A stretch of DNA of 64,000 bases. It comes from an uncultured Clostridia bacterium. Lineage in GTDB: Bacteria > Bacillota > Clostridia > TANB77 > CAG-465. Both the position numbers and the translations under genes were made by a program. The notes beneath the pieces are model-generated. The model searched no databases and was not told the origin of the DNA. It saw nothing but the letters and a program-made list of their open reading frames with translations. Of this stretch, positions 4,446 through 51,446 are shown one piece after another. Where the stretch lies: positions 13,938 through 77,937 of the forward strand of contig CALXJE010000040.1 in assembly GCA_944388545.1 (NCBI GenBank), given 5' to 3'. Within the stretch, counting starts at the first letter, position 1, and each line of letters opens with the position of its first letter.

Positions 4446-5327
4446 TTATATTTTAAATTCTAAACCTATTACTTCATAATATTTATTCTTTTTAAATTCA
4501 AGTATAGAATATTTCATAGATAGTTCTCTTGCCTCTTGAATAACTAATTCATAATTATCATCTGCGTTTAAATCACATGCAAATTTAATAGAATAAACAG
4601 GCCAGTTTATAGAACTTTCGGTATTCTTTACGTAAGAATATTTAATTATTTTACTTTTATTTCCTTGAACATATACAACCACACTATATACTCCAAATTT
4701 ATTTTTTCCAGAAGATGTAGCAGATATTATTCTTGTTTTTTGGTCTGTTCCTAAATACCCCTCATAAACCTCATTTACTTTAACAGTATTATTTAATAAT
4801 CTATATTTGCCTAACGCTTTCTTAATATATTTTTCATCTTCTTTAGATGGTTCTAATTTAGCAAGTTCTCTAATCATTGCATTATTTTCCGATTTAGCAA
4901 TTGCTATATATTCACTATCAGAAACATCCTTTAAAGGTATAGCATAGGTTATTCCTCTTTCTTGATCTTGACTTACAGAATATATTTCAAAAGTTCCCAT
5001 TTTACCAGAGACATTATACATATCTATTTCGGTACCTTTAGTTATATTTGCCTTGCCATACATATTATCTTTGCTAAGCCATTTTCCTTTATCAGACACT
5101 CCTCCTACTACAACGTTATTTATTATTATAGGAGAAACAGAGGAAACTTCTTCACTTTTAACTTTAGATGATGATTTATCTATATATTCTACAGTTATAT
5201 AATTTTGTGTATACACATATATTAAAAATATCGCAGATACTAAAAGTATTACTATTAATAATATAATTAATGGTATCAGCTTTTTATTATTTTTCTTTTT
5301 ATTTACCTTTTTCATATACCTTGCCAC
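4446..5327 (-). CDS. Hypothetical membrane-anchored protein (single N-terminal TM, extracytoplasmic domain)
   Basis: ORF with K-rich N-terminus plus hydrophobic helix LIPLIILLIVILLVSAIFLIYVY. No recognisable catalytic motif. Packed between thrS and queH with short gaps. Confidence 0.5.
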   Translation of the reverse strand: MARYMKKVNKKKNNKKLIPLIILLIVILLVSAIFLIYVYTQNYITVEYIDKSSSKVKSEEVSSVSPIIINNVVVGGVSDKGKWLSKDNMYGKANITKGTEIDMYNVSGKMGTFEIYSVSQDQERGITYAIPLKDVSDSEYIAIAKSENNAMIRELAKLEPSKEDEKYIKKALGKYRLLNNTVKVNEVYEGYLGTDQKTRIISATSSGKNKFGVYSVVVYVQGNKSKIIKYSYVKNTESSINWPVYSIKFACDLNADDNYELVIQEARELSMKYSILEFKKNKYYEVIGLEFKI

Positions 5328-7047: not shown

Positions 7048-9093
7048 TTACACTTGCAAAAAACATTCTAATTCTTCAGATGTGACTATTTTCTTTTTCA
7101 TAAGATATTTTGCCATACTTTCTATCTCACTCCAATGATCAGTCACAAATTGTTCAGTTTTGTCATATACCTTTCTAATAAGATCATTTGCTTTTTCATC
7201 AATTTTTATTGCAAGCTTTTCATTAAACAAATCATCGTCTAAAAGATAAATATTTTTGTATTCATCATCATCCATACCAAATTCTGCTATAACACTTTTA
7301 GCAAACTTTTTGGCTTTTTCTAAATCAGACGATGCTCCACTATCTATTCTTTTAGAAATTCTCTGTTGCGCTACTCTTCCTGCAAGTAGAGACATAATAT
7401 ATGCCTCTGCATACTCATGATCTATAGATATTATAGTATCTCTTTTTTCTAGCACATTAACTCCAAGATAATCGGCAGAAGGGATTATTGATATAGCTGT
7501 AACCTTATGAGCTTCATTTTCTTTTGTAAGTCTAGTAACAATATAATGTCCTATTTCATGGTAAGCAGTACAAAGCAAAGTATGTTTATCACACTTTATT
7601 TGTTTTTCAAAAAGTTCCTCATATACTTTGTTTACATCTTCTTTTGATGTTAACTTCTTACCTTTCATTTTAGCTATAGCCATACTTCTATCACAAAGAT
7701 CAAGCGTCTTGTCAGGATTACAGTTATCTGAATTAAAGCAACTTGAGCACAGAATAATATAATCGACTAGTTTGCTGGGTATTCTTACACCATGATACTT
7801 TTCCATGCTTTTTATTTTTGCTTTAATCATTCCTTTTACTTCACTTATTTTAGGTTCTTTTATTATTATAACCTCAAACCGTCTTTTAAAGGCGCCATCT
7901 CTTGATAGAATTTGGTTATATTCGTTTGTAGTTGTTGCGCCAACGAACACTACATCGTCTCTAGAAAGAATAGGCTTTAAAGATCCACTAAGATCAACAT
8001 TTCCTTCTGATGTTCCTCCTGCACCAAGCATTTGATGCATCTCATCAACAAATAGTATAATATTAGGTGTGTTCTCAAGAAATTGCTTTAAGATAGTCAC
8101 CTTAGTTTCAAATTCTCCTCTGTACTTAGTTCCTGCTACCATAGCATTTACATCCAGTGATAGCACAGTATAATTGTAGAATTCCTTTGGTGCTGTTTGA
8201 TTTACTATATGCTGTGTTATTGCCTCTATAATCGCTGTTTTACCTACTCCTGGCTCACCAACTAGTACTGCATTTCTCTTAGTTTTTTTAGAAAAGATGT
8301 TAAATGCCTTAAATATTTCTTTATCTCTACCTAGTATAGTACATTCTTCTCCTTTTTCATACTTGTTATTTAATACTTCAATACAAGATTCTAATGAAGG
8401 AGGAACAACTATCGGAAGAATTTCACTAGCTTCTGCATCAAGGATATTTGCGCCTAATTTAATACTTGATATGAATTCTTCTATATCTATTTGCATCTGT
8501 TTTAAAAGAAAGCTTAAAAACTTATATGCGCTACTTTCTTTATTTTTCAAAATACAATATAGAAGAACATTCAAATCAATGTAATCAAGACCCATAGCCC
8601 TGCATGTTTTTGATGCATCTTCGAGAGCCATCTCTAATTTATCAGAATAAAGCAATTCAATTATGCAATCATTAATTTCAAAGTTTTCTGCATCAGCAGT
8701 CACCTCTATTATTCCACTTAATACCTTAAGAACTTTACTTGCAATTTCATCATCTTCTGATAAATTAAAGTCAGAACATTTTAATAATGGTTCATTTTCT
8801 TCTTCCTCTGTTTCTTCATTAACAGTTTGGTCAAAGTAAGTATCAGCTGCTTCTTTTCCAAATATTTCTTCGTATATTTCTCTACTATTTAATATCTGAA
8901 AAACATCTGCTACAAGTGCAATTCCCATATCCAAAAAAAATTGTGTTATAATTGATTCTTGATTATTAAGAGCAGCAAATAATACATATGCGCTCCTTAC
9001 TTTTTCATCATCAAATTCGTTGGCAATAACTGTTGCAACCTCAAATGCTCTCCGAACCTCAGCGCTAACTTTAGCTTCATTCCAATTACTCAT
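7048..9093 (-). CDS. Soluble AAA+ protease: Clp-N domain + single ClpA/ClpC D1-type AAA+ module + FtsH-type M41 zinc peptidase domain
   Basis: N-terminal Clp_N-like repeats. Walker A LVGEPGVGKTAIIEAI, Walker B ILFVDEMHQM, sensor RDGAFKRRFEVI (all ClpA D1-like). C-terminus TAYHEIGHYIV...HKVTAISIIPS...LLAGRVAQ...GASSDLEKA aligns with FtsH TAYHEAGHA/HKVTIIPRG/LGGRxAEE/GASNDI. No TM segments. Confidence 0.7.
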   Translation of the reverse strand: MSNWNEAKVSAEVRRAFEVATVIANEFDDEKVRSAYVLFAALNNQESIITQFFLDMGIALVADVFQILNSREIYEEIFGKEAADTYFDQTVNEETEEEENEPLLKCSDFNLSEDDEIASKVLKVLSGIIEVTADAENFEINDCIIELLYSDKLEMALEDASKTCRAMGLDYIDLNVLLYCILKNKESSAYKFLSFLLKQMQIDIEEFISSIKLGANILDAEASEILPIVVPPSLESCIEVLNNKYEKGEECTILGRDKEIFKAFNIFSKKTKRNAVLVGEPGVGKTAIIEAITQHIVNQTAPKEFYNYTVLSLDVNAMVAGTKYRGEFETKVTILKQFLENTPNIILFVDEMHQMLGAGGTSEGNVDLSGSLKPILSRDDVVFVGATTTNEYNQILSRDGAFKRRFEVIIIKEPKISEVKGMIKAKIKSMEKYHGVRIPSKLVDYIILCSSCFNSDNCNPDKTLDLCDRSMAIAKMKGKKLTSKEDVNKVYEELFEKQIKCDKHTLLCTAYHEIGHYIVTRLTKENEAHKVTAISIIPSADYLGVNVLEKRDTIISIDHEYAEAYIMSLLAGRVAQQRISKRIDSGASSDLEKAKKFAKSVIAEFGMDDDEYKNIYLLDDDLFNEKLAIKIDEKANDLIRKVYDKTEQFVTDHWSEIESMAKYLMKKKIVTSEELECFLQV

Positions 9094-9497
9094 AATTTTT
9101 TATGCCTCCTTATACATTAATTAACGTTAAATTAAACCTCATTTTATGCTGAGATTATACCTCCGGCCTCTGCAAAAGTCAATCTTTTTTATAAATGAAG
9201 TAGCATCTAATTTTTTTTTACATATAATATAGTATCTAATATGTATTATCGTATTAGAAATTATAGTATATGGTGGGTTTAATGTATCTTAATTCAGTTC
9301 TTAGAAATTGTTTATGGTGCCTACCTTGGAAATTACCATATGGTAACGGACATTATGCTACTGGGTGTGATCTAGTCTTACTATCTAATATGATATGTAT
9401 AGAACAATGTCTTACTAACTTCTCCTGTAATTTACTTGGCTGTGCACCAAATAATGCCCCCTGTGTGCTAAATGGCCATAGAAAGGAGAAAAAAGAA

Positions 9498-9677
9498 ATG
9501 TCTCAAGGATTTAACAATTGGGGTCATGGCAAAAATAATTGCTGCTGTCAATGTTGTCAATGTTGCGAATGCTGCCAATGTTGTTGTGAATGTTGCGAAA
9601 AAGAAGAGCATAAACCAAAATGCGCTACTTTAAAAGTTTGCATTGAAAAAGAAGAAAAAAAAGACGATTGCTGCTAG
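9498..9677 (+). CDS. Cysteine-rich microprotein (59 aa, about 18 Cys in CC/CCC runs)
   Basis: Strong RBS GAAAGGAGA 8-9 nt upstream of ATG 9498. Product MSQGFNNWGHGKNNCCCQCCQCCECCQCCCECCEKEEHKPKCATLKVCIEKEEKKDDCC. An in-frame upstream extension to 9270 exists but lacks a comparable RBS. Confidence 0.55.
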   Translation: MSQGFNNWGHGKNNCCCQCCQCCECCQCCCECCEKEEHKPKCATLKVCIEKEEKKDDCC

Positions 9678-9710
9678 ACCTTAGTTAAAACGCCAAAACA
9701 ATTAAGCTAT

Positions 9711-9735
9711 GTGCAAATGTTTTTTACATTTGCAC
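9711..9735 (+). other. Perfect 10-bp stem / 5-nt loop hairpin after the Cys-rich ORF (no U-tract)
   Basis: GTGCAAATGT-TTTTT-ACATTTGCAC. Not a canonical intrinsic terminator because the 3' flank is not U-rich. Confidence 0.4.
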
Positions 9736-9882
9736 TACATACCCATCTAATTATATTATATATTTATTACATATTTATTTCGTATTTTCTATTTAAGTTT
9801 AATATATAGCTTTTTCCTTGTGTTTTCACAAGATATATGCTATACTTACCATGTTAGACTTAATTGTTTTAAGGGGGATTTT

Positions 9883-11166
9883 ATGGATAAAATAATTATT
9901 GATGGTCCATGTAGATTATCTGGTGAAGTAACTATTAGTGGTGCAAAAAATGCTGCTGTTGCAATACTTCCTGCCACTTTACTTGTAAATGGAAAATGCC
10001 ATCTTGAAAACGTACCCGATATTAGTGATATTAGGGCTACTATAAAAATATTAAAATCTTTAGGTTCTAAAGTTGAATATATAACAAGAAATGAACTAAT
10101 TATAGATAATTCAAATATAACTACTGTAGAAGCTCCATACGATTTAACATGTAAATTTAGAGCTTCCTATTATCTTTTAGGTGCTTTAATAAGTAGATTT
10201 GGTAAAGCACAAATAAGTCTTCCTGGCGGTTGTAATTTAGGAGCAAGACCAATTGATCAACATATTAAAGCTTTTGAAAAACTAGGGGCAACAGTTGAAG
10301 TAAAAAGAGGAAACGTTTATGCTAGCACTAAAAATAAACTTTCTGCTGGAAATATATTTTTTGATGTAGTAAGTGTGGGGGCAACTATTAATGCTATTTT
10401 AGCAGCCACATTAGTCCCTGGAACTACTACAATTGAAAATTGTGCAAAAGAACCGCATGTAGTTGATGTTGCAAATTTTTTAAACTCTATGGGTGCTAAT
10501 ATAAAGGGAGCTGGAACTGATGTTATTAAAGTTACTGGCGTTGAAGCTTTAAAACAATCTTCAAGCTATGCTGTTATTCCAGATCAAATAGAAGCAGGTA
10601 CTTTTATGGTTGCTGCCGCTATAACTAAAGGTAATATACTTATTAAAAATTGCATACCAAAACATATGGAACCTATTACTGCTAAACTTCAAGAAGCAGG
10701 TGCTGAAGTTACTGAATTTGAAGATACAATCAGAGTATCAATGAATGATACTCCTAGACCTATAAATATAAAGACAATGGCGTACCCTGGTTTTCCCACA
10801 GATATGCAACCTCAAATATGTACACTAATTGCTATCTCCAAAGGAACAGGTATGATTATAGAAAGTATTTGGGAATCTAGATTCCAATATACTGATGAAC
10901 TAATTAAAATGGGAGCTGATATAACTGCTCATGGAAGAACAGCTATGATTAAAGGTGTAGACACTTTATATGGATGTCCGGTTGCCTCTCATGATTTAAG
11001 GGCTGGTGCTGCTATGATTTTAGCAGGTTTAGTAGCTCATGGAAGAACTGAAGTATATAATGTTCACCACATTGAAAGAGGTTATGAAAATATAGTAGAT
11101 AAGTTTAAGAAATTAGGTGCTAAAATAGAATTTGTTAGAGATAATGGACGTGATGAAAATGTTTAA
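9883..11166 (+). CDS. murA: UDP-N-acetylglucosamine 1-carboxyvinyltransferase
   Basis: RBS AAGGGGGA followed by ATG 9883. MDKIIIDGPCRLSGEVTISGAKNAAV...; conserved catalytic-cysteine region LPGGCNLGARPID. Confidence 0.9.
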   Translation: MDKIIIDGPCRLSGEVTISGAKNAAVAILPATLLVNGKCHLENVPDISDIRATIKILKSLGSKVEYITRNELIIDNSNITTVEAPYDLTCKFRASYYLLGALISRFGKAQISLPGGCNLGARPIDQHIKAFEKLGATVEVKRGNVYASTKNKLSAGNIFFDVVSVGATINAILAATLVPGTTTIENCAKEPHVVDVANFLNSMGANIKGAGTDVIKVTGVEALKQSSSYAVIPDQIEAGTFMVAAAITKGNILIKNCIPKHMEPITAKLQEAGAEVTEFEDTIRVSMNDTPRPINIKTMAYPGFPTDMQPQICTLIAISKGTGMIIESIWESRFQYTDELIKMGADITAHGRTAMIKGVDTLYGCPVASHDLRAGAAMILAGLVAHGRTEVYNVHHIERGYENIVDKFKKLGAKIEFVRDNGRDENV

Positions 11167-11956
11167 CTTATATCCTTTATTTAGTAGTAGCTCTGGCAAT
11201 ATGTATCTAATAGAAACTGAAGATACAAATATTTTAGTTGATATTGGAGTTACATATAAAAAAGTAAAAGATGCTCTTAATACACTTAACAAAGATACTT
11301 CTGATATAGACGCTATATTTATAACACACGAACATAGCGATCACATAAAAGGACTTAATATGTTTATTAAAAATAACCCTACTATCCCTATATATGCATC
11401 AAAAGGTACTTCTGCATATCTAAAGAACTCTCTTATTAATTCTAAAATAGAGTTTAATAATATTATAGAATTATGTGAGCCTAAGTTTATAAATATTAAA
11501 GATCTAAATATAACATATTTTAATATTTCTCATGATGCAATAGATCCTGTGGGTTATAAAATATCACATGGCGATAAATCCATTACTATAGCAACTGATT
11601 TAGGAACGATTACAAATGACGTTTATTCGTATTTAGAAGAATCTTCTTTACCCGTTATAGAATCAAATTATGATAAAAATATGTTACTTGCTGGGAAATA
11701 TCCATTTGAAGTAAAAAGAAGAATTTCTGGCCCATACGGACATCTTTCAAATGAAGATAGCGGACAAGTCATTTTAAAACTAGCTCAAAATGGAATTAGA
11801 AACTTTTTACTTAGTCATGTAAGCGAAAATAATAATGTACCAGACCTTGCTAAAGAAACTATATGTTCAACACTATCTCTTGCTGGTTTTAATGTAAATG
11901 AATTTAATATAAACATTGCAAGTAAAGATTTTTCTACTGAGGTATATGAGTTATGA
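11153..11956 (+). CDS. MBL-fold metallo-hydrolase (WalJ/YycJ-like)
   Basis: HxHxDH motif ITHEHSDHIKG and beta-lactamase-fold layout. Overlaps the murA stop and the rlmH start (operon). Start codon is ambiguous (11132/11153/11159). Confidence 0.75.
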   Translation: MKMFNLYPLFSSSSGNMYLIETEDTNILVDIGVTYKKVKDALNTLNKDTSDIDAIFITHEHSDHIKGLNMFIKNNPTIPIYASKGTSAYLKNSLINSKIEFNNIIELCEPKFINIKDLNITYFNISHDAIDPVGYKISHGDKSITIATDLGTITNDVYSYLEESSLPVIESNYDKNMLLAGKYPFEVKRRISGPYGHLSNEDSGQVILKLAQNGIRNFLLSHVSENNNVPDLAKETICSTLSLAGFNVNEFNINIASKDFSTEVYEL

Positions 11957-12441
11957 TTAATATTAATATAATTTGTATTGGTAAGATTAAAGAAAAATAT
12001 TTAAACGATGCAATAGCAGAATATTCTAAAAGATTATCTAGATTCTGCAAATTAAAAATAATAGAACTCCCTGACGAAAAACTACCTACTACATACAATA
12101 AAACTCTCTATAATGAAGTTAAAGAAAAAGAAGCAAAACTTATATTAAATAGATTAGAAACCATAAAATCTTCATATGTAATTTGCTTAGATGAAACAGG
12201 AAACTCACTAACTTCTGAAGAATTAGCAAATAAAATCAGTGAAATATCTACCAATATATCTAGTTCTATTACTTTTATAATAGGAGGAAGTCTAGGGTTA
12301 TCTAATTATATAAAAAACAAAGCTCATTATATTATATCTTTTTCAAAACTTACATTTCCTCATCAACTTTTTAGAGTATTTCTTTTAGAACAACTGTTTA
12401 GATGCTTCAAAATACTAAATAACGAAACGTATCATCATTAA
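11953..12441 (+). CDS. rlmH: 23S rRNA (pseudouridine1915-N3)-methyltransferase RlmH (SPOUT)
   Basis: MININIICIGKIKEKYLNDAIAEYSKRL...; SPOUT knot region IIGGSLGL. About 160 aa. Confidence 0.85.
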   Translation: MININIICIGKIKEKYLNDAIAEYSKRLSRFCKLKIIELPDEKLPTTYNKTLYNEVKEKEAKLILNRLETIKSSYVICLDETGNSLTSEELANKISEISTNISSSITFIIGGSLGLSNYIKNKAHYIISFSKLTFPHQLFRVFLLEQLFRCFKILNNETYHH

Positions 12442-12553: not shown

Positions 12554-12802
12554 ATGGAAACTACGGGAATAGTTAGAAAATTAGATGAATTAGGTAGAAT
12601 CGTTCTTCCGATGGAACTTAGAAAAACTTTAGATTTAAAAGTAAAAGATTCGATTGAAATAACAACAGATAAAGGATCTATTATATTAAGAAAATATTCT
12701 CCTGCATGTATATTCTGTGGCAAAGAAACAAAAGTTGCCAACTTTAAAGGAAAGAATATTTGTTCTAAGTGTTTAAATGAGATTAAATTACAACTAGATT
12801 AG
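12554..12802 (+). CDS. AbrB/SpoVT-family transition-state regulator homologue with Cys-containing C-terminus
   Basis: Swapped-hairpin N-domain TGIVRKLDELGRIVLPMELRKTLDLKVKDSIEI. RBS AAAGGAGG upstream. C-terminus carries CIFCGK...CSKC. Confidence 0.75.
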   Translation: METTGIVRKLDELGRIVLPMELRKTLDLKVKDSIEITTDKGSIILRKYSPACIFCGKETKVANFKGKNICSKCLNEIKLQLD

Positions 12803-13339: not shown

Positions 13340-14794
13340 TTACATATGATCAAATATTGCTTTATCCCATGCACTTTTATTATATTTTATGTCATCTCTA
13401 TCAAATCTAGCTCCAAGGTTATATGCAGATAAAATAACATTTGAAATATCTTCATTTCCGTTTTTAAGCAATATATTTGTAACATATTTATTAATATTTG
13501 CTAATTTCCATATTATAACTGGATCACATTTTTTCTCTTTAATATATCTTAACTTAGTTTCCAGTTTATTTATACTATTTACATTATATGATTCTTTATT
13601 TTTTGGTATATAATAATCAATATTAATTATTATACTTAATTTATCTTTTGCTTTGCTTTGAGAATATATATTTACTATTTCTTCTGCAATATCAAATATA
13701 TTATCTATATCTTCATAAGTTTCATTAGGCAAACCTATATTAAAAATAAGTTTTAAGCTACTTCTATTATTTTTAAAAATACATATAATTTTTTCTAATA
13801 AATCTTCTTTTAACATTCCTAGTTTTATTTTATTATTTAATTTATTACTACATGTAATTACATTAAAATTAAGTATTGATTTTTCCATACACTCAAGAAT
13901 AACTCTTAACGTTTCTATGTCAAATTTACTAAAATCTAAGTTTTTAGTAAGTATCCTTACATCTTCAATATTCATCTTTATTTTATATACAAGTTCACAA
14001 AATTTATAGTTTTCTATTTTGTCTTGATTTATAAAGGAAACTTTAGTAACTCCCATATTTTTTATGCTATCTTTTATATATTTAATTGTTTTATCGATAT
14101 CTTTTACTTCCTCTAAATCCACTACAATACTAAATTCATCTATCTTAATCGATGGAATAATATAATTTTTATCATATTTAATTTTAACATCTTCATATCC
14201 TTGAATATTTTTTTCTACATTTAATAATATATCCTTATTAAAATTAGACTCTTCATAGCTTTTCAAATACCTTAGTATTTTTTTCATATTAGATTTTTCA
14301 TTTTCCGATTCTAATATTATATCTGCAAATTTTTCTATAGGTTTAATATTTATATTCTTTAATGGAAAAATTAACACTTTAGGCGCAATTTCAGTTCTAT
14401 CTTCCTTATTAACAGCTATTTTTGATAATTCTAATATATTTAAAAAATTGGTATAATCTAATTCATTATCAATAACAAATATTAATAAATCACTATCTTT
14501 TATAGGTTTAAAATCTTCGAGTGAATATAGCAATTCATTTTTATCCCTTAGAAGTTTTTCAAAATCCATGTCAGGTGCAAAGCATCTTTTACAATAAATT
14601 CCTTCTATATCATTTATATTATTGTATAATAAATTTATTATATAATTTGACATGGCTTTTTCATAAACATTTGGATAACATAAAATAATATTACTTTTTA
14701 CTTTACTACCACTTTTTATTATTTGATTTACTTCTCCGCCTACATACCTTGCAGGTTTGTTTATGTTTTTTAACTCTCTGCTCTCTAAATTCAC
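13340..14794 (-). CDS. TIGR03960-like (radical-SAM-family N-terminal domain) protein lacking the CxxxCxxC cluster motif
   Basis: N-terminus KPARYVGGEVN...ILCYPNVYEKAMSNYIINLLYNNIN...YCKRCFAPDMDFE matches the distinctive N-terminal block of the TIGR03960 family. No CxxxCxxC anywhere. 484 aa versus about 600 typical. Confidence 0.45.
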   Translation of the reverse strand: MNLESRELKNINKPARYVGGEVNQIIKSGSKVKSNIILCYPNVYEKAMSNYIINLLYNNINDIEGIYCKRCFAPDMDFEKLLRDKNELLYSLEDFKPIKDSDLLIFVIDNELDYTNFLNILELSKIAVNKEDRTEIAPKVLIFPLKNINIKPIEKFADIILESENEKSNMKKILRYLKSYEESNFNKDILLNVEKNIQGYEDVKIKYDKNYIIPSIKIDEFSIVVDLEEVKDIDKTIKYIKDSIKNMGVTKVSFINQDKIENYKFCELVYKIKMNIEDVRILTKNLDFSKFDIETLRVILECMEKSILNFNVITCSNKLNNKIKLGMLKEDLLEKIICIFKNNRSSLKLIFNIGLPNETYEDIDNIFDIAEEIVNIYSQSKAKDKLSIIINIDYYIPKNKESYNVNSINKLETKLRYIKEKKCDPVIIWKLANINKYVTNILLKNGNEDISNVILSAYNLGARFDRDDIKYNKSAWDKAIFDHM

Positions 14795-15752: not shown

Positions 15753-16808
15753 CTATATGTCCTCCTTGCTGTCTAACATTTCTTGTTTGGTACCATTTAT
15801 TATAAAATCTTTTGTTATGTTTTTCTCATTTAAATCTTTTTTGTTTATAGAAACATTTACATTATCTACTATAATATCAATTCTATCTAATATTTCAAAT
15901 TTACTCCATGTCTTTATAACATCTATAAATTTAACAACATCATCTATTTCTGAAGATTCTACGTTTACAATACTCATTTTTATAATATCTGGATTTGTTA
16001 ATATTTTAGAATAATCATACATGCATTCTACGTCTAGATTAGTCAAGCTATTCTTTTTTAGTATAATATTTATCTCTGCATTTACAATTCTATTTAGTTT
16101 ATCCTTTCTATTATTCATATTTACATCTGCTATTTCTCCATTTAAGCTATAGTTAAGTTCTACTTCTGTTCCGTCTATTACAGCATTAAATTCATATATC
16201 CCTCCTCCATAGGAAGGTATGTATTCTACATTTTTTATATAATATTCAGAATATCCATAATTTTCTATAACGTACTTATTTATATCTCTTCTTGCAAATA
16301 TATAACTTATCATATTATTATTTACAATATTATTTAAGATTAATGGTATCAATATAGAAGCTATAAGTCCTATTATATATGATATTTTATGATAATACTT
16401 TATAAACTTTCTAAGCTTTGCATTTTCATATAGTAAATTAGCAATATGTCCTGTTATAGCACCTAAAGCTGTCATAAATGCACCATATATAGAAAATAAA
16501 ATTATGTTAAAGTTTATTTCTGATTCTATTAAACAGCCAAATACAACTATGCTAATCATACTTAGTATTACTGTTATAACAGGTTTATTAAACATAATAC
16601 ATCCAAAAATACCTAGGAAATACAACATAGGAACCATACGTATAAAAACATTTCCACATATTGTAAAATACGAAGCTAATATAATTAGTAAGATGTATAT
16701 AACAGCTTCAAAAATAATTTTTATTTTCTCTTTTTTAGGAATAAACATATCTGTCACAGTATCCACCTCATATTTAATATTATATATTAAATATATAGGG
16801 TCTGTCAA
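15753..16808 (-). CDS. Polytopic integral membrane protein, unknown function
   Basis: About six hydrophobic helices in the N-terminal 170 aa, then a soluble C-terminal domain. 1-bp gap to the downstream HExxH gene. Confidence 0.45.
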   Translation of the reverse strand: MTDPIYLIYNIKYEVDTVTDMFIPKKEKIKIIFEAVIYILLIILASYFTICGNVFIRMVPMLYFLGIFGCIMFNKPVITVILSMISIVVFGCLIESEINFNIILFSIYGAFMTALGAITGHIANLLYENAKLRKFIKYYHKISYIIGLIASILIPLILNNIVNNNMISYIFARRDINKYVIENYGYSEYYIKNVEYIPSYGGGIYEFNAVIDGTEVELNYSLNGEIADVNMNNRKDKLNRIVNAEINIILKKNSLTNLDVECMYDYSKILTNPDIIKMSIVNVESSEIDDVVKFIDVIKTWSKFEILDRIDIIVDNVNVSINKKDLNEKNITKDFIINGTKQEMLDSKEDI

Positions 16809-23825: not shown

Positions 23826-25067
23826 TTACATTATATAAAGTGTTAATCGAAAACCGAAGTTAACGTCGCAGTTAGTCGGAATATTACCGTAACGAGAGCA
23901 AGCTCGATTTTCTGGTCCAACAAGATAGGAATAGAAATCTCCTCGGCTAATACGATAACTACTACCGTTAGCTTCCATAGTCCATTCATATACATTCCCT
24001 GCTAAGTCATATATATTCTTTGCTTTCCAATTTTCATGTGCTCCTGTTTTTGCCGGATTATTTGGACTTACTGATGTTCTATCTGGATTATTATAATAAT
24101 TTCCCCATGATGTACTATCATTTACATTATGCTCGTTATCTGCTATAAACCTTAATACTGCATCCCACTGCACACTATATATTAATGTTGATTTTACTGA
24201 AGTGCTTGACTTATATAAATTTCTTGATAGTTCTACTGCCCCTTTTCCTTGATTTTTACTACTATATGTTACATCTCCTTCTGCTGATGTCATACTTGGT
24301 CCCCAACCCACATAATTATATACATATGCATCTTGTTTTACTACCATGTTTGTCGTTCCATTAGCTACATTAGTTCTTTCTGTCTCACTTCCTGCTTCAT
24401 ATCTTCCTATATAAAAGCCTCCATACTTTTCTACACTTTCTTTCATTTTTTTATATTCTGCATATTCTCCTGTTAAATCATTTGTTTCTGTTATTGTTGT
24501 ATTATATGAATATGGCTCTGTATAATATGAAGATAATCCTGATGTTGGCGCATTATTTGACCATGCTGTCCTTGTAAACTCAGATGTATCTACTGGCACC
24601 CATACAAATTGATTTCTTGTTGTCTTTGCGTCCGTGTCTGTTGATACTTTTTCCTTTCCTTCATATATTACTAGTCCCCCAGCTATTGTATTTTCTCCTT
24701 CTATATCTGATACCACAAATCCTTCTGGCACTGTTACTATTGATATTTTACCTGCATCTGATATATATATTAGCCCTAAATCTTCATCACTAAAACCTTG
24801 ATCTTTTAATTTGTCTTTTATATATTCTTCTGCACTTCTTGTTTCATTATCCATTTCTGTTGCTAGTACCCATTCTCCGTATGCTATATTTGCTGCTTCT
24901 TTTAGTGTTGCCATGTCACTTGCCTTTTTTGCTTCTTTTGCTCTATCTATTACTCCGCTATTATTTAATGTTAATATTATTGCTCCTGCTAATATTATCA
25001 TGATTATTATTGTTATTATTAACACTATCAATGATATACCTATCCTTTGTTTTTTTCTTGTTTTCAT
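23826..25067 (-). CDS. Membrane-anchored FGE-sulfatase (SUMF1/formylglycine-generating-enzyme-like) domain protein, paralog 1
   Basis: N-terminus MKTRKKQRIGISLIVLIITIIIMIILAGAIILTLNNSG (signal anchor, pilin-like). C-terminus NIYDLAGNVYEWTME...ISRGDFYSY...RACSRYGN......NFGFRLTLYI matches the FGE-sulfatase signature. Confidence 0.65.
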   Translation of the reverse strand: MKTRKKQRIGISLIVLIITIIIMIILAGAIILTLNNSGVIDRAKEAKKASDMATLKEAANIAYGEWVLATEMDNETRSAEEYIKDKLKDQGFSDEDLGLIYISDAGKISIVTVPEGFVVSDIEGENTIAGGLVIYEGKEKVSTDTDAKTTRNQFVWVPVDTSEFTRTAWSNNAPTSGLSSYYTEPYSYNTTITETNDLTGEYAEYKKMKESVEKYGGFYIGRYEAGSETERTNVANGTTNMVVKQDAYVYNYVGWGPSMTSAEGDVTYSSKNQGKGAVELSRNLYKSSTSVKSTLIYSVQWDAVLRFIADNEHNVNDSTSWGNYYNNPDRTSVSPNNPAKTGAHENWKAKNIYDLAGNVYEWTMEANGSSYRISRGDFYSYLVGPENRACSRYGNIPTNCDVNFGFRLTLYIM

Positions 25068-25184
25068 TTTTTCCCTCTTTTCCTTTATTTTTTCTTTTTT
25101 ATATATTTATATTATTTCATATATAAAATAATTTTACAAGTGTTGTTTAATATATTTTTTAACTTAATATATCTCTTGTATTCT

Positions 25185-25559
25185 TTAATTAAATAGCCTT
25201 CCATATTTTTCGGTTGAATATTCAACTATATAATCAATTCTAGAGATTAAATATTCTATATCAGACATATTTACCTCATTCATATCTAGTGTATTATACT
25301 CAGAATTAACGCCAAGCATAGCCATAAAAAGTTCTTTATCTTTGTCAAGATATTCTTTGATTATGTTTGTTATACTTGTATCTTCTAATTTCACTTTAAA
25401 TTGTTTAATTAATATATTTATATTCACAAATTCAAGTAATGCTGCAGCTTTATAATAGGCTTCTTTATATAGTTTATTATCAATACATTTCTGAATCTTG
25501 CTTAACATTTGTTTTAATTTTTCATATTTTGATATATTACAAAACAACTTATCATTCAT
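25185..25559 (-). CDS. Hypothetical protein (124 aa), translationally coupled to the upstream 359-aa ORF
   Basis: 4-nt ATGA overlap with the upstream gene. No recognisable domain. Confidence 0.5.
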   Translation of the reverse strand: MNDKLFCNISKYEKLKQMLSKIQKCIDNKLYKEAYYKAAALLEFVNINILIKQFKVKLEDTSITNIIKEYLDKDKELFMAMLGVNSEYNTLDMNEVNMSDIEYLISRIDYIVEYSTEKYGRLFN

Positions 25560-26635
25560 CTTCCATCACCCCTTGTATCGTATGCTCCTTTTACCTTCAA
25601 ATAATGAGCATATCTCGGATTTGTTTTTTCAATGTCATTAATTTTCTCTAGCTGCTTTTCTTCTGTCATACCTCTAAGAGATTTTAAAAATTTTTCTGCA
25701 TCTTCTGATACATTGCTACTTAGCATGATGTTGTTTTTCTCAAAAAGAACTTGATCATATTCTTTATTACTTAGCAGATCAAATATTGCTCTACGATTAA
25801 TATTTATCTCTTCATCTAAATTCTTAGATAATACACTCTCATCTACATACTTATTTTTACTTAATCTATTTTGGGTATTAACTGATGCCTGCGCTTCTAA
25901 TTTTGGATCCATTAGGTGAACCGCAAACTGTCCGTAATATGGTAAATCCATTACAAAAGCTTTTTGTGATTTTCCATTTTTATTAATACTATCTTTTATA
26001 CCATAATTGATATCAGGTCTATCTTTAAGTTTTACTAACATCTTTTGAAGAGAGTATTCTTTTAAGTAAAAAGCTGTACTTTCTGCTTCTACAAGTTCTC
26101 CAAATCCATCTGTTTTAAATTGATTAACATCAATTCCTAGATATTCACATTCTCTACTTAGGGTATAATTAATATAACCTTGCTTGTCTTTTTTTGAATA
26201 ATGAAATTGTCTTCTAATGCCTTTTAAAATGTTAGCCTCTGAAGATTTATCTACACTATCACTTGCATATTCTCTTATTTTTTTTCTCATTATATCTGTT
26301 ATACTATGTGCTATTCTATTTGAAATCGTCACACATAGTGCAAGCTCTACTATATCCTCACCAGAAGCTTCAGATAATATATCTTCTATAGTAGTATCTT
26401 TATCTATAAAAGTTTGCATTTCTGTTGGTTTTTCTTCCTCTTTATCGTTATATTTATTTAACCAATTTGGTTCTAGCTCATTGTACGCAACTAATATATT
26501 TTTTAACATCTCATAATTATCTGCCAAACAGTCCTCTATCAATGAAAAATTTAAATTTTTAACTCTATTTTTTCTAGAATTTGCCCTTTCTAATTCTAGT
26601 TCTTTATCTATTTTATTGAAATTAACGCCTTTCAA
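25556..26635 (-). CDS. Hypothetical protein (359 aa), unknown function
   Basis: TTG start preceded by GAGGTG RBS. Soluble, charged. No Walker, HExxH or other catalytic signature recognised. Confidence 0.5.
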   Translation of the reverse strand: MKGVNFNKIDKELELERANSRKNRVKNLNFSLIEDCLADNYEMLKNILVAYNELEPNWLNKYNDKEEEKPTEMQTFIDKDTTIEDILSEASGEDIVELALCVTISNRIAHSITDIMRKKIREYASDSVDKSSEANILKGIRRQFHYSKKDKQGYINYTLSRECEYLGIDVNQFKTDGFGELVEAESTAFYLKEYSLQKMLVKLKDRPDINYGIKDSINKNGKSQKAFVMDLPYYGQFAVHLMDPKLEAQASVNTQNRLSKNKYVDESVLSKNLDEEININRRAIFDLLSNKEYDQVLFEKNNIMLSSNVSEDAEKFLKSLRGMTEEKQLEKINDIEKTNPRYAHYLKVKGAYDTRGDGR

Positions 26636-26702
26636 ATAATCACCTCAAATATATAAATTAAGCTATCATATAATTAAGTAATTGTCAATTAATTTTATAA
26701 AG

Positions 26703-26735
26703 AAAAAAATCACGTTAATACGTGACTTCTTTCTT
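26703..26735 (-). terminator. Weak intrinsic terminator after the 75-aa ORF
   Basis: TCACGT-TAAT-ACGTGA stem with a U-run on the minus strand. Confidence 0.35.
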
Positions 26736-26961
26736 AAATTTTTATTAATCTTCCAATTTTCTTATGTATTTCTTCTAGAGATTGATAATAATATTCATCT
26801 TTATCTTCTCTATCAAGGCTTGATAACTCAAAATCGATTTCAAGTAGTTTTGCACATTTTGCTAAATATTCTTTGTACTCTGGATTAAAACTATCAGTTA
26901 CATTAGGACTTTTTTGAGTAAAATCTTTAATTTTATTTCTTAATTCTTCAACCGTTACCAT
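26734..26961 (-). CDS. Small hypothetical protein (75 aa)
   Basis: ORF MVTVEELRNKIKDFTQKSPNV...; acidic. No known motif. Confidence 0.4.
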   Translation of the reverse strand: MVTVEELRNKIKDFTQKSPNVTDSFNPEYKEYLAKCAKLLEIDFELSSLDREDKDEYYYQSLEEIHKKIGRLIKI

Positions 26962-37312: not shown

Positions 37313-38626
37313 TTATATTAAATACAAAGCTATTCTAAAACCAGTACTCGAACTTGCTTCATTGCTAAATGAACCATATCTAGTTGATGCTCCTCCATCT
37401 GCTCCTCCTTTATTTAAATTATAAAAACCTCCTCTTGTTGCTATAATACTTGAACTCATTTCCATAGTTATTTCATATATATTTCCAGCTATATCATATA
37501 TGTTTTTAGCTTTCCAATATTCACTACTTCCTGTTTTTTGCAATGTACCTGCCCCATCTACTTGTTTTTCACTACTAACACTACTATTATAATCTTTATA
37601 ATTCCCCCAGTCACTTGAATCAGTAACATTCACATCTGTAGATAAAAATCTTAAAACGGCATCCCATTGTACTCCGTAACATAATGTTGATACTATAGCT
37701 TTATTACCACTATACATATTTCTTGATAATTCTATTGCGCCCTTCCCTTGATTTGTTGTTTCATCCCAGTAATCTATTACATCTCCTGTTGTTGATATTC
37801 TTGTTGGTCCCCAGCCTACATAGTTATATACATATGCTCCTTTTTTTACTACTACATCTGTTGTACCATTTGATTTATCTGTTCTTTCAACATTAGTACC
37901 TGTTTCATATCTACCTATATAAAAGCCTTTATATTTTTGTACACTAGTTTTCATTGCAGCATACTCAGCATATTCTCCTGTTAAATCATTATCTTCTGAT
38001 AATGTTACAGTAGCTCCATCCCTACAGCCACTACCAAACTCATAATCTGTACACACATTTGTTGCAGGCTCAATATAAGCAGAATTTAAGCCAGATACTG
38101 GTTTATTATCAGACCACTCAGTTCTTACAAAATCAGAAAAATTTTCAACAGGGACCCATACAAATTCATTACCATTTTTATCTTGAATTACTATACCTGT
38201 ATCTTTAGTGCCATCTATGTAAACAAAATCTTCTGGAATTATTATACTATATGTCATATTTTTTTCCTTATATATTGTATTTACAGTCCCCTCATCTGTT
38301 ACAATATATGCTCCGTTTTCGTTTCCAGTTTTTATTCCCGCCTCTTCTAACTTTTTATTTGCATAGTCAGAAAATTTTCCGGTATTATTAGTTTCTTGTT
38401 TTTGCTCTTCCTCAGACATTAAATTCCATTCTAGCTGAACAACTGCAACTAATTCTTTTACACTTGCTATATCACTTTTATTTTTTGCTTCTTCTGCTCT
38501 TCCTATTATTCCGCTATTATTTAATGTTAGTATTATTGCTCCTGCCAATATTATCATGACTATTATTGTAATTACTAATACTATTAGCGATATTCCTCTT
38601 TTTTGTTTCCTTAGTTTTTCTTCCAT
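37313..38626 (-). CDS. Membrane-anchored FGE-sulfatase-domain protein, paralog 2
   Basis: N-terminus KRGISLIVLVITIIVMIILAGAIILTLNNSGIIGRAEEAK is near-identical to paralog 1. C-terminus GNIYEITME...TRGGFYN...GFRIALYLI. Confidence 0.65.
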   Translation of the reverse strand: MEEKLRKQKRGISLIVLVITIIVMIILAGAIILTLNNSGIIGRAEEAKNKSDIASVKELVAVVQLEWNLMSEEEQKQETNNTGKFSDYANKKLEEAGIKTGNENGAYIVTDEGTVNTIYKEKNMTYSIIIPEDFVYIDGTKDTGIVIQDKNGNEFVWVPVENFSDFVRTEWSDNKPVSGLNSAYIEPATNVCTDYEFGSGCRDGATVTLSEDNDLTGEYAEYAAMKTSVQKYKGFYIGRYETGTNVERTDKSNGTTDVVVKKGAYVYNYVGWGPTRISTTGDVIDYWDETTNQGKGAIELSRNMYSGNKAIVSTLCYGVQWDAVLRFLSTDVNVTDSSDWGNYKDYNSSVSSEKQVDGAGTLQKTGSSEYWKAKNIYDIAGNIYEITMEMSSSIIATRGGFYNLNKGGADGGASTRYGSFSNEASSSTGFRIALYLI

Positions 38627-39359: not shown

Positions 39360-39920
39360 CTATTTTTTTACTTTCTTTCTATCTACTTCATTATTTGCTT
39401 TTATAGGAGCAAATATGTGAACTACGCTACCTACAAAGTACATTATTTCATTGCAATTATCTATTGCTTTCTTCTTTCCAATTGCTTTACCACCCACTGT
39501 CAACGATGCTACAACGCCTCCTACAACAAGTGTAATTATAAATGTATTAATACCAAGTGTATTACTTAAAGTAACAGATATAAGGGCAGAAAGTGAACCA
39601 CTAACTATACCACATACATCACCTACTACGTCATTACATATACTGGTAACTTTTTCTTTAGAACGTATAAGTTTAATAGTTTCTTTTGCGCCTTTGTGTT
39701 TTTTAGCTGCTTTTGCATGAAATGGAGCTTCTTCACAAGTTGCAACTGCCATTCCTATCATATCAAAAAATATTCCTATACCAATTATAACAATTAATAC
39801 TAGGAACGCTATAACTATATTAATTTTACTTAGTAGTGCGTTAGATACTCCATTAAATATTATTGAAAGCATAAATGTAATCACAAATGTTTTAATAATC
39901 CATTTATTACTATCTTTCAT
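39360..39920 (-). CDS. oapA: OLE-associated protein A-like 4-TM membrane protein
   Basis: 186 aa, about four TM helices, DxxxD motif (NDVVGDVCG, D97/D101). Lies immediately downstream of and co-oriented with the large ncRNA region. Confidence 0.6.
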   Translation of the reverse strand: MKDSNKWIIKTFVITFMLSIIFNGVSNALLSKINIVIAFLVLIVIIGIGIFFDMIGMAVATCEEAPFHAKAAKKHKGAKETIKLIRSKEKVTSICNDVVGDVCGIVSGSLSALISVTLSNTLGINTFIITLVVGGVVASLTVGGKAIGKKKAIDNCNEIMYFVGSVVHIFAPIKANNEVDRKKVKK

Positions 39921-39960
39921 TTTACCTCATCATTTCTATTTATACTATATATGTTATGGC

Positions 39961-40521
39961 AATATACTAAGTAAATTTTGCGGCTTAAGGTCAAGTTGGA
40001 TTTCCCCGATCGTTACTACTAGTTACCTTATAGCGGTTTCCCTTTAAAACAATCGACTAATAGTCACCTGATTAGTTACTCGATTACCACTGAGACCACA
40101 CTTCAATCCTTAATATATCAACATTATATGTTACAGTCTAGAGGTTTTCCCTAACAAAACTTAAACTATCTTTATCCGCTTTTGCAAATATAATTTCAAG
40201 AAACAGATATATAATCCACATGGCCTAAGAGGATTATATATGAACTTTCTATCCCGTATATTCACTCACGACAGGCTACAATATATATAGTACTCTCTAT
40301 ATATATGGTTACGTTTTAAATAGAGAAATAACTTAAAACGTGAGCTGAAAAAAAGGCAGTGCTTTTGTATGCCATTACAAATCCACCTTAATTTCTAAAA
40401 ACTCATACATACACCCCAGTCTGGGCGACCAAAGCATATATACAAGCCGCTAATATGTGCCTTTTAATGGATTTTTAGGCCCATCTTCAAATAGTGTTTT
40501 GACTAGAATACTGCGCCATAC
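39961..40521 (-). ncRNA. Large structured non-coding RNA, candidate OLE (ornate large extremophilic) RNA
   Basis: About 560 nt with no ORF in any frame. Locally higher GC than the flanks. Its own consensus sigma-A promoter on the minus strand. Immediately upstream of the oapA-like gene. Ends are approximate. Confidence 0.55.
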
Positions 40522-40528
40522 AACATAT

Positions 40529-40557
40529 ATTATACCATTTTAAAATAAAATAGTCAA
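40529..40557 (-). promoter_or_regulatory. Sigma-A promoter driving the ncRNA
   Basis: Minus strand TTGACT (40557-40552), 17-nt spacer, TATAAT (40534-40529). Confidence 0.7.
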
Positions 40558-47057: not shown

Positions 47058-47732
47058 TTATTTGTATAATATCTTTACTCTCTTTATATTATATTTTATA
47101 TCTCTATTTATATATTCTATATATCCTGACATTATATATTCTGGATTAAGATTTCTTTCTTTTTTAGTATACACTGTTATTCTAAGTCTATTATCTATAA
47201 GAAAGGTATATTCTAATATGTCCGGTTTAATATCTATTCTTTCTTGCCTATATGGTGTTTTTTTTAATACTAATATAGCAGATTCTTCTAAGTATTCTTC
47301 AAACATACTTCTATACCATTCTTTTATATCTTCTATTTGTTTTTTATTCATTTCATAAAACATATTATCATCATATACAAGCTCTATTTCGTAAGTAGAT
47401 GCATATACTCTTTTATTTATTTCCTCTTTCATATCAACATATTGAGCTCCTAGTATTATCATGCCAACAGGAAGTGTTTTATTTATTTCTCTTACTAAAT
47501 ATGCTACATCTATATGTTCTTTTATAACAACATCACATATTTCCCCATTACTTTCAATTCCAATAGGAAGAGTACTAGCATTTACTATTTCCGGTTTAAC
47601 ATTTCTACTTTTACTATATACTAATTTTGCCCCTATTCTTATAAGAGCTTTTGATATAACATCACATATATCTATTGAAGGTATATATATAGATGATTTT
47701 GACTTCATATATGTAAGTCTTAATTTATACAA
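47058..47732 (-). CDS. TIGR03936/DUF2344-family (radical-SAM-linked) protein
   Basis: KLRLTYMKSKSSIYIPSIDICDVISKALIRIGAKLVYSKSRNVKPEIVNASTLPIGIESNGEICDV matches the DUF2344 N-terminal pattern (RxRFxK.G.xRFISHLD...RAL.RAGLP.AYS.GF.P.P.I.F...LP.G.ES..E..D). Confidence 0.5.
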   Translation of the reverse strand: MYKLRLTYMKSKSSIYIPSIDICDVISKALIRIGAKLVYSKSRNVKPEIVNASTLPIGIESNGEICDVVIKEHIDVAYLVREINKTLPVGMIILGAQYVDMKEEINKRVYASTYEIELVYDDNMFYEMNKKQIEDIKEWYRSMFEEYLEESAILVLKKTPYRQERIDIKPDILEYTFLIDNRLRITVYTKKERNLNPEYIMSGYIEYINRDIKYNIKRVKILYK

Positions 47733-51357: not shown

Positions 51358-51446
51358 TTTTATACCTCCAAAGTCGCTATTTTTCACACCTGAATTATAT
51401 CATTAAAGTATTGATTTGTCAGTATTTAGGACGATTTTTAGCAAAG

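Follow-up and report, generated by a model that had tools for sequence, protein, structure and literature searches.

How much of a gene is an open reading frame (ORF) of 59 amino acids (aa) in which almost every third residue is a cysteine? This question is raised by a short ORF on contig CALXJE010000040.1 (assembly GCA_944388545.1) of an uncultured Clostridia bacterium, of which we analyzed a stretch of 64,000 nucleotides (the window; contig positions 13,938 to 77,937; G+C content 28.4%). All positions below refer to the window. The original prediction had described a microprotein at 9498 with about 18 Cys in CC/CCC runs split by Q or E, a strong Shine-Dalgarno (SD) site in front and a perfect hairpin of 10 bp behind, and had offered a metallothionein-like peptide, a spore coat component or a precursor of a ribosomally synthesized and post-translationally modified peptide (RiPP) as possible identities. 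Coordinates and sequence of the ORF are as described there. We propose, with high confidence, that it is the C-terminal part of a two-module frame of 131 codons with an internal start, carried on an mRNA bracketed by stem-loops, and that the N-terminal module belongs to a family linked to murA (Table 1).

The product of the short ORF, MSQGFNNWGHGKNNCCCQCCQCCECCQCCCECCEKEEHKPKCATLKVCIEKEEKKDDCC, has a Cys content of 31% compared to a mean of 1.2% in the large ORFs of the window. Its CC[Q/E] run is generated by a 9-nt tandem repeat, TGTCAATGT, present in 4.3 copies at 9546-9584. The peptide has F5 and W8 as its only aromatic residues and almost no His.

Table 1. Features of the locus in window coordinates.
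Feature	Position	Strand	Details
Promoter-like region	9200-9229	+	GTAGCA 9200-9205, 15 nt, CATATAATA 9221-9229 containing TATAAT 9223-9228
5' stem-loop	9235-9258	+	TCTAATATG / loop TATTAT / CGTATTAGA
SD1 and start of the long ORF	9272-9284	+	GGTGGG 9272-9277, ATG 9282-9284; GGTGGGTTTT-ATG kept in all loci
N-module (residues 1-57)	9282-9452	+	Motif LWCLPxKLPYGxGHYxTGxxLxxLSNxxxIEQxLTNxSCNLLG
Linker (residues 58-72)	9453-9497	+	Holds SD2 AGAAAGGAGA 9480-9489
C-module (microprotein, tail)	9498-9677	+	ATG 9498, 59 codons, TAG 9675-9677; 18 Cys
3' hairpin	9711-9735	+	GTGCAAATGT 9711-9720, TTTTT loop, ACATTTGCAC 9726-9735; followed by conserved TACATACC
murA promoter	9818-9846	+	TTGTGT, 17 nt, TG-c-TATACT (extended -10); kept in all window-clade loci
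murA (UDP-N-acetylglucosamine 1-carboxyvinyltransferase)	9883-11166	+	NCBIfam equivalog, 572 bits vs cutoff 552
MBL-fold (metallo-beta-lactamase) gene	11132-11956	+	After murA
rlmH	11953-12441	+	After the MBL-fold gene

The long reading frame and its internal start

The frame of the short ORF stays open for another 77 codons upstream and yields an ORF of 131 aa when it is read from the ATG at 9282. The first SD site (SD1) forms a duplex of -6.3 kcal/mol with the anti-SD sequence, and the homologue P0001 is called from the equivalent Met. An alternative start at ATG 9270, which would give 135 aa, was rejected: it is absent or out of frame in the related loci L006, L008 and L010, whereas ATG 9282 and its GGTGGG are conserved. 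When the 135-aa frame was searched against protein collections, it matched 13 unnamed metagenomic proteins, none with a Pfam domain and most of them 131-153 aa long, and their alignment has an N-terminal part of about 72 residues that is far better conserved than the Cys-rich part. At the DNA level we compared 16 related loci from three Clostridia metagenome-assembled genomes (MAGs) and from ENA and Logan contigs; the three MAGs came from a scan of genome contigs, and a scan of metagenome contigs contributed one extra locus. Gene callers treat the locus inconsistently, reporting products of 96, 104 or 131-153 aa, or pieces of 58-66 aa.

Variation in the N-module has the signature of a translated sequence. 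Across 53 ungapped codons, 24, 13 and 45 columns vary at the first, second and third codon position, respectively, and 23 codon columns vary only synonymously in the real frame, compared to one in each of the shifted frames. This pattern indicates that the block upstream of the short ORF is translated and under purifying selection. In these alignments the N-module is coding and is the most strongly constrained part of the gene; given its wider family (see below), it is also the evolutionarily older part. We had initially suspected an RNA leader, because the conserved 'RKEK' in front of the invariant 'MSQG' is the SD site itself. On that explanation, the upstream block would be a leader or riboswitch that happens to be open, with the 59-aa ORF as the only gene, which would suit the very high conservation upstream of the SD and start and the conserved stems in the 5' region. 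The codon-position pattern refutes it, with third positions varying in 45 of 53 codons and second positions in 13, as do the synonymous-only columns. Moreover, distant homologues at 30% amino acid identity retain the protein motif, and the tail of L008 can be expressed solely via the upstream frame. A permissive Rfam cmscan of 9000-9900 gave matches at chance level (E > 1, all far below the gathering scores). We regard a non-coding leader as almost certainly wrong.

The linker holds a second SD site (SD2), 9 nt before the start codon of the short ORF. Its duplex with the canonical Firmicute anti-SD sequence is predicted at -13.3 kcal/mol, compared to -10.2 kcal/mol for murA, and lies beyond the first percentile of 20-mers from the window background. 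It is nucleotide-invariant in all 13 loci with a Cys-rich tail, so the strong SD of the original prediction is borne out. In these loci an ATG or GTG start follows 9-12 nt downstream. AAG accounts for 17% of the Lys codons and GAG for 14% of the Glu codons in the genome, and 85% of the third positions in the N-module vary; since SD2 is invariant despite these rare codons, its conservation goes beyond the coding need. The locus thus has the conserved internal SD and start that mark a predicted dual-product gene.

The two modules are not joined in every lineage. L001 and L006/L007 have an in-frame TAA after SD2 and ahead of the start codon (HRKEK-stop-I-M/V-SQGY); L006/L007 start the short ORF with GTG. 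As this stop separates the modules, the peptide would be made alone in these two split lineages. Both ORFs are intact in both of them. L001 and L006 differ at 18% of the nucleotides of the N-block, as much as either differs from fused relatives; hence the split stop has persisted through substantial divergence or has arisen twice. At the other extreme, L008 has neither an SD nor an internal start, and its tail can thus be made only as a fusion. In total, 11 lineages including the window are fused with an internal start, two are split and one is fused without an internal start. In the window both the 131-aa fusion and the free 59-aa peptide would be produced, with the free peptide expected to be the more abundant product, as SD2 far exceeds SD1 in strength. 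That lineages switch between fused and split states suggests joint action of the modules, either within one complex or on a shared target. Two-product genes with internal initiation are well known, such as B. subtilis SafA with its full-length and C30 forms, and ClpB, IF2 and CheA with their long and short forms. The locus shares with them an in-frame, nucleotide-conserved internal SD and start that predict a long form and a short C-terminal form; it differs in that relatives are also fully split or fully fused, and in that the short form, predicted here like the long one, would be a low-complexity peptide and not a folded domain. The claim of a microprotein therefore holds in part: the ORF is genuine and has its own SD and start, but it is the tail of a conserved 131-aa frame rather than a free-standing 59-aa gene. 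Likewise, the possibility raised in the original prediction that the true gene is a longer frame is half right, as the long frame is a conserved coding unit, though of 131 and not 135 aa.

The tails of the 13 loci measure 57-78 aa, contain 14-31% Cys and are rich in Lys and Glu with some Tyr; those of the relatives of the window tail have 14-26% Cys and at most six Tyr. Two anchors are kept, an initial SQGYNNWG and, close to the C-terminus, KCATIKVCIEE (CATLKVCIE in the window, 9621-9647), and their variation is synonymous-only. For CATIKVCIE there are five synonymous-only codon columns in frame compared to none in the shifted frames, which argues that the tail is translated in the plus frame. 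As far as substitutions can tell, purifying selection acts on the anchors. The stretch between them varies by indels and repeats, and swaps between Cys and Tyr (TGY/TAY) are frequent. The tail of L008 (ITPYNNSCYYNYYDNRQSDELCSGLKVCINDN) is homologous to the Cys-rich tails, yet Tyr-rich with only three Cys. L003 and L004 have a divergent Cys/Asn/Ser version built of CxC motifs (CNC/CSC repeats). This alternative tail (L003 5220-5393, identical in L004; MCMSCNCSSNQNCSQNSCNCNNSCSCNMPQTCNCSCNQPYNQCCNIKICTDSNQCGY) contains 26% Cys, 23% Asn, no Glu and one Lys; in composition it is close to the C-termini of the distant family members P0020 and P0050, a hint that Cys/Asn tails may have come first. When the tails were used as a search profile, all matches belonged to the same clade. 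AlphaFold2 (AF2) assigned a predicted local distance difference test score (pLDDT) below 40 across the tail and of 42.6 to the full-length model, and the tail is probably disordered.

The ORF, the SD and the hairpin recur in 13 related loci. Because of this recurrence, the synonymous-type variation of the anchors and the compensatory changes in the hairpin, we conclude that their combination is not due to chance. Two minus-strand ORFs over the tail (9468-9611 and 9511-9618) were rejected as genes: they reflect base composition, as TGY and GAA/AAA codons read without stops on the opposite strand, and only the plus frame has synonymous-type variation. On the same strand, a sigma-70 scan reports a near-consensus promoter, TTGACA-17-TATTTT, inside the Cys repeat (9532-9560); its TTGACA is the complement of the TGTCAA (Cys-Gln) repeat unit, and the match is probably an artefact of the repeat.

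Promoters and stem-loops of the predicted message

Upstream of the long ORF, a 12-locus alignment reveals the element GTA[A/G]CA-N15-CATATA[A/C]TATA[G/C]TATCTAAT, kept in an otherwise variable intergenic spacer; most relatives read GTAACA where the window reads GTAGCA. The sigma-K consensus is AC-N16-CATAnnnTA. The element fits this type and a weak sigma-A promoter about equally, the latter with 3-4 of 6 positions at -35, a 17-nt spacer and 5-6 of 6 positions at -10 (TATAAT/TATACT). For comparison, mother-cell -10 boxes of C. difficile read CATATATA and CATATTAT (PMC3789822). A sigma-70 scan of the window did not list this promoter region. The search for a sporulation promoter (sigE/sigK) that had been proposed earlier thus gives a divided answer: a CATA-type -10 with AC 16 nt upstream is present, but sigma-A fits equally well.

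Immediately after the -10, a stem of 7-9 bp (TCTAAT.../...ATTAGA) is found in 13 of 13 loci. Its inner pairs change in a compensatory manner (AT/AT, AC/GT, ATG/CAT, CAC/GTG, plus G.U variants). The fold is thermodynamically weak (-6.8 kcal/mol, z = -0.8), so the evidence for it is covariation and not energy. The stem behind the tail is stronger. In the window it has 10 perfect pairs, four of them G-C, and the region folds at -14.8 kcal/mol with a z-score of -3.6 (-3.2 to -4.5 across the loci). Stems of 10-17 bp with loops of 3-13 nt occur in all 13 tail-bearing loci and are absent in L008; here too the inner pairs covary (ATGT/ACAT, ACAC/GTGT, ATGC/GCAT, and GTGC/GCAT with G.U). The hairpin is not an intrinsic terminator, as it is followed by TACATACCC without a U-tract and the terminator scan gave zero calls. 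The perfect 10-bp hairpin lacking a U-tract is therefore real, and the accompanying idea of a transcript stabiliser fits a conserved RNA structure that is accompanied by a conserved 5' stem-loop.

Stem-loops at both ends without a U-tract are consistent with a stabilised monocistronic message and some read-through into murA. The transcription unit would extend from about 9230 to 9740, with an mRNA stabilised at both ends. Firmicutes are known to use such elements, e.g., 5' stem-loops and STAB-SD sequences, the 3' 'retroregulator' hairpins of cry genes, and the aprE and ermC leaders. The features in common are a 5'-proximal stem-loop just downstream of the predicted transcription start and a strong stem-loop at the 3' end that lacks a U-tract, both covarying; the 5' stem of the locus differs in being short and AT-rich, and both transcript ends are predicted.

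murA retains a promoter of its own, which was read from the sequence; the sigma-70 scan, at its thresholds, did not list it. The distant loci L017 and L021 share its TGcTATACT element. Between the 3' hairpin and this promoter, at 9760-9815 (+), all window-clade loci contain a conserved non-coding block (ATATTATA...TTATTACATATTTATTTC[G/T]TATT), perhaps an additional murA promoter or an operator.

The N-module family and its place beside murA

A profile search with the N-module against 1.8 billion representatives gave 22 hits. Apart from P0022, a spurious repeat protein that was rejected as a family member, these are small stand-alone proteins of 59-97 aa, and a second profile search added 11 members. 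The family motif is P-x-x-x-x-HY-x-TG-x-[DN]-[IL]-x-x-FSN-x-x-C-[IV]-E-[NQK]-x-L-[TS]-N-x-[ST]-C, in which H24, Y25, E41 and L44 are invariant. The distant members P0020, P0050 and P0031 have short Cys-rich C-termini of their own.

No annotation accompanies the family. Among the members whose names were looked up, none has a name beyond one 'hypothetical protein'. A Pfam scan of the 135-aa frame (E <= 0.01) returned no family, and neither the protein nor its relatives have an NCBIfam match. A profile search against PDB sequences and Pfam scans of the individual members (E <= 1) gave chance-level matches only (uL10, COX17, BRCA2 OB3). A plasmid tblastn found no match to the locus, and the literature search returned nothing relevant on a named small protein upstream of murA or on a Firmicute metallothionein of such a type. 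The locus thus belongs to no described family, although the kinds of components it is made of, i.e., a Cys-rich low-complexity protein, internal initiation and stabilisers of mRNA ends, are known.

With an alignment of 24 sequences, AF2 modeled the N-module at a pLDDT of 58.8, with a short helix (3-13), a PYGxGHYxTG loop and a long second helix (28-54; pLDDT about 77). Tentatively, it is probably a soluble domain of the helical-hairpin type. The N-module and full-length models are too uncertain for a meaningful fold comparison, and the N-module model is also too simple. No transmembrane (TM) segment or signal peptide is predicted (maximum KD19 1.28), hence the protein should be cytoplasmic.

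The genomic context of distant members was available for two of them at about 30-35% identity, one represented by L017-L020 and the other by L021. The N-module gene lies directly upstream of, and co-oriented with, murA, the MBL-fold gene and rlmH in L001, L005, L006, L010, L017-L020 and L021. The left flanks of these loci are of three unrelated kinds: a gene for an AAA+/M41 protein in the window clade, L31/PrmA/WhiA genes in L017-L020 and leucine-rich repeat (LRR) and polysaccharide genes in L021. In L017 no terminator lies between the small gene and murA. L017 and L021 have neither the tail ORF nor the 3' hairpin. This indicates that the tail is an innovation of the window clade and was inserted behind the N-module gene, ahead of the promoter of murA.

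Two neighbors of the operon are of note in themselves. At 7048-9093 (-), a 681-aa protein combines one ClpA/ClpB-like AAA+ module with its lid and a C-terminal FtsH-type M41 peptidase; its Clp_N match is sub-threshold (19 bits vs a cutoff of 20.7) and it is apparently without membrane anchors. Its gene is divergent from the small gene in the window-clade loci with an annotated left flank (L001, L005, L006 and L010). Downstream, 12554-12802 (+) encodes an AbrB-type transition-state regulator (METTGIVRKLDELGRIVLPMELRKTL...) with a C-terminal CxxC...CxxC extension. The AbrB-type gene lies just after rlmH in the window clade and in the distant L021 (at about 8334 in L001, 8259 in L003, 6222 in L005 and 10996 in L021).

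Candidate functions and further features of the window

What could the tail do? We tentatively put first a thiol-dense module for metal or redox buffering that would work together with the N-module, while holding it at clearly less than even confidence. In the reducing cytoplasm of an anaerobe, the tail would be a thiolate-dense polyampholyte, serving as a ligand for soft or borderline metals (Zn, Cu(I), Fe, Ni) or as a buffer against oxidants and electrophiles. The part of the N-module would be to anchor or steer this activity, perhaps in relation to MurA and the cell-wall operon. The reading is placed first because such a composition is expected to bind soft metals in a reducing cytoplasm and the protein appears to be cytoplasmic, and because the CxC variant of L003 and the Cys-rich ends of distant members agree with it. 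Several observations speak against it. No metal-homeostasis gene, transporter or metal-sensing regulator lies within 10 kb on either side, and no operator-like DNA site is found nearby, the conserved palindromes behaving as RNA stems. Neither the positions nor the amount of Cys are conserved: Cys and Tyr interchange frequently, and the L008 tail is rich in Tyr with three Cys. A dedicated metal site is for this reason unlikely, and a cross-linking or loosely constrained low-complexity role would fit better. The Glu/Lys polyampholyte spacers and the hydrophobic, beta-like anchor CATIKVCIE are atypical for metallothioneins. In addition, the linkage to murA comes from three independent contexts only and could be inherited synteny, and the N-module model is of low confidence (pLDDT 59).

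Bacterial metallothioneins (SmtA/BmtA, Metallothio_Pro; MymT) and their eukaryotic counterparts are nevertheless the obvious comparison. They too are small, with 15-31% Cys, CC and CxC motifs and Lys beside Cys, and they share with the window peptide the poverty in aromatic residues and His and the lack of a signal peptide; the CNC/CSC repeats of L003 are metallothionein-like as well. The tail, on the other hand, matches no metallothionein family, its Cys positions are unconserved with frequent change to Tyr, it has long Glu/Lys stretches, a hydrophobic anchor and a coupled module of 57 aa that is not Cys-rich, and no metal-responsive regulator lies near the locus. Of the earlier guess of a metallothionein-like peptide, the general idea may hold, whereas membership in a known bacterial family fails and metal genes or regulators are missing nearby. 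If the tail does bind metals, it would represent a new type of bacterial metallothionein in Firmicutes.

Cross-linking leads to a rival reading as a protein of the spore coat or exosporium, in which a late mother-cell gene with a sigma-K/E-type promoter encodes a low-complexity Cys/Tyr/Lys tail cross-linked by disulfides or dityrosine into the outer layers of the spore; internal initiation would supply long and short isoforms like those of B. subtilis SafA/C30. Composition and rapid evolution recall CotC/CotU/CotG and CdeC/CdeM, and the interchange of Cys and Tyr, the Tyr-rich L008 and the polyampholyte spacers suit cross-linking. Compared to these proteins and to CotY/Z-ExsY and the Clostridium protein CsxA, the locus shares a small, low-complexity product rich in Cys, Tyr, Lys, Glu and Asp without a signal peptide, a fast lineage-specific evolution and a CATA-type -10 box. 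In spore-formers, spoVT, spoIIP/gpr or spoVS are frequently found beside mfd, hrcA and rny/ymdB, but here the sites beside mfd, hrcA and (in L017) rny/ymdB hold other genes. The conserved -10 starts with CATA and has AC 16 nt upstream in most loci, although the promoter fits weak sigma-A equally, and the stem-loop-bracketed mRNA suggests a stable, highly expressed message. Two neighbors might be taken as support: the AbrB-type regulator 3 kb downstream, abrB being named among sporulation-related genes (PMC3533761), and the divergent AAA+/M41 peptidase, as an M41-family peptidase is controlled by sigma-G in C. difficile (PMC3789822). No sporulation-specific family was found by Pfam and/or NCBIfam among the approximately 55 ORFs of the window or in the 16-kb contexts of L017-L021, however, and the AbrB-type regulator was the sole sporulation-related find in the 64-kb window and about 40 kb of related loci. 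A six-frame scan of the window and of all loci revealed none of the motifs typical of small spore proteins, the gene has no homology to known coat families (Pfam/NCBIfam), and the ancestral N-module gene is tied to the housekeeping operon murA-MBL-rlmH. We estimate the probability that the lineage sporulates at all at roughly one third. The spore-coat proposal, which composition and the CATA-type -10 would fit, is weakened by the lack of sporulation genes in the DNA covered, and we consider it unlikely.

The constancy of the murA linkage invites a different proposal, i.e., that the N-module is the functional core, binds MurA or another product of the operon and acts as a regulator of early peptidoglycan synthesis, the tail providing thiol or metal sensing or control of degradation. 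The synthesis of cell-wall precursors would then be coupled to the redox state in a strict anaerobe. In Firmicutes, the small proteins ReoM and ReoY, together with ClpCP, control the level of MurA, and the divergent neighbor in the window clade is a Clp-N/AAA+/M41 protease; that neighbor is not conserved outside the window clade, though, and the protein has no similarity to ReoM/IreB or another known regulator. The adjacency and common orientation with murA in three rearranged contexts, with no terminator between the genes in L017, the cooperation of the modules implied by fused/split switching and the strongest constraint falling on the N-module all argue for such a role. Still, guilt by association in three contexts carries the case, and murA retains its own conserved promoter; we consider the proposal rather improbable. 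An extended scenario would make the N-module family a hitherto unrecognised partner of MurA in AT-rich gut Clostridia, to which the clade has added a Cys-rich peptide gene, born de novo largely by repeat slippage in the former intergenic region and alternating between the fused and the split form. The peptide would be a thiol/metal switch through which the redox or metal status sets the pace of the first committed step in making peptidoglycan. This is speculative and finds still less credence with us. If the linkage to murA proves functional, it would point to a new regulator of an antibiotic-target enzyme.

The division into a conserved N-terminus and a variable Cys-rich C-terminus, seen across the family including its distant members, would also be expected of a RiPP precursor in which the N-module is a long leader and the hypervariable C-terminus a core that is modified and possibly exported. 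A radical-SAM gene does lie 3.7 kb downstream on the other strand (13340-14794), but its product matches TIGR03960, no radical-SAM gene is found in the downstream flank of L017-L021, and the radical-SAM protein upstream in L017-L020 is of the HemN type (PF04055 + HemN_C). In no context is a maturase, a leader peptidase or a transporter adjacent; the constant neighbor is a bona fide murA. The putative core, moreover, has its own invariant SD and start, and two lineages translate it without the leader, which is incompatible with leader-guided maturation. Known precursors with long leaders (NHLP/Nif11-type; SCIFF of Clostridia) share the conserved N-terminus of about 55-70 aa and the hypervariable Cys-rich C-terminus, and differ from the locus in the same respects, i.e., the maturase and transporter it lacks and the independent translation of its core; no leader-cleavage motif was recognised here. 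The RiPP guess is accordingly disfavored, and we judge it very unlikely.

Whatever its role, the locus would add a conserved, unannotated small-protein family, without Pfam, NCBIfam or PDB match, to uncultured, very AT-rich Clostridia of the human gut. In addition, close relatives carry the gene in one of three forms: fused, fused with an internal start, or split. Such a clean natural series lends itself to work on how genes fuse and divide, on internal initiation, and on low-complexity peptides that arise by repeat slippage.

Elsewhere in the window, 39940-40535 (-) holds a full-length ornate large extremophilic (OLE) RNA (Rfam RF01071, 339.7 bits, E = 3.9e-96). The 186-aa ORF beside it (39360-39920, -) has no Pfam or NCBIfam match and might encode an OLE-associated protein. 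An unusually high proportion of the larger ORFs (293-535 aa) lack any Pfam or NCBIfam match (23826-26961, 15753-16808, 4446-5327, 37313-38626 and 47905-49512, all on the minus strand), among them three consecutive ones upstream of hrcA-grpE-dnaK-dnaJ. Current family databases represent this lineage poorly. The TIGR03960-type protein at 13340-14794 (-), a B12-binding radical-SAM protein, and a DUF2344 protein at 47058-47732 (-) are encoded 32 kb apart; the name of the NCBIfam model, rSAM_fuse_unch, suggests that proteins of these two types are often fused. Finally, a 233-aa ORF with a DUF772 transposase domain (50686-51387, -), adjoining a sortase gene (49755-50633, +), may be the remnant of an insertion sequence (IS).

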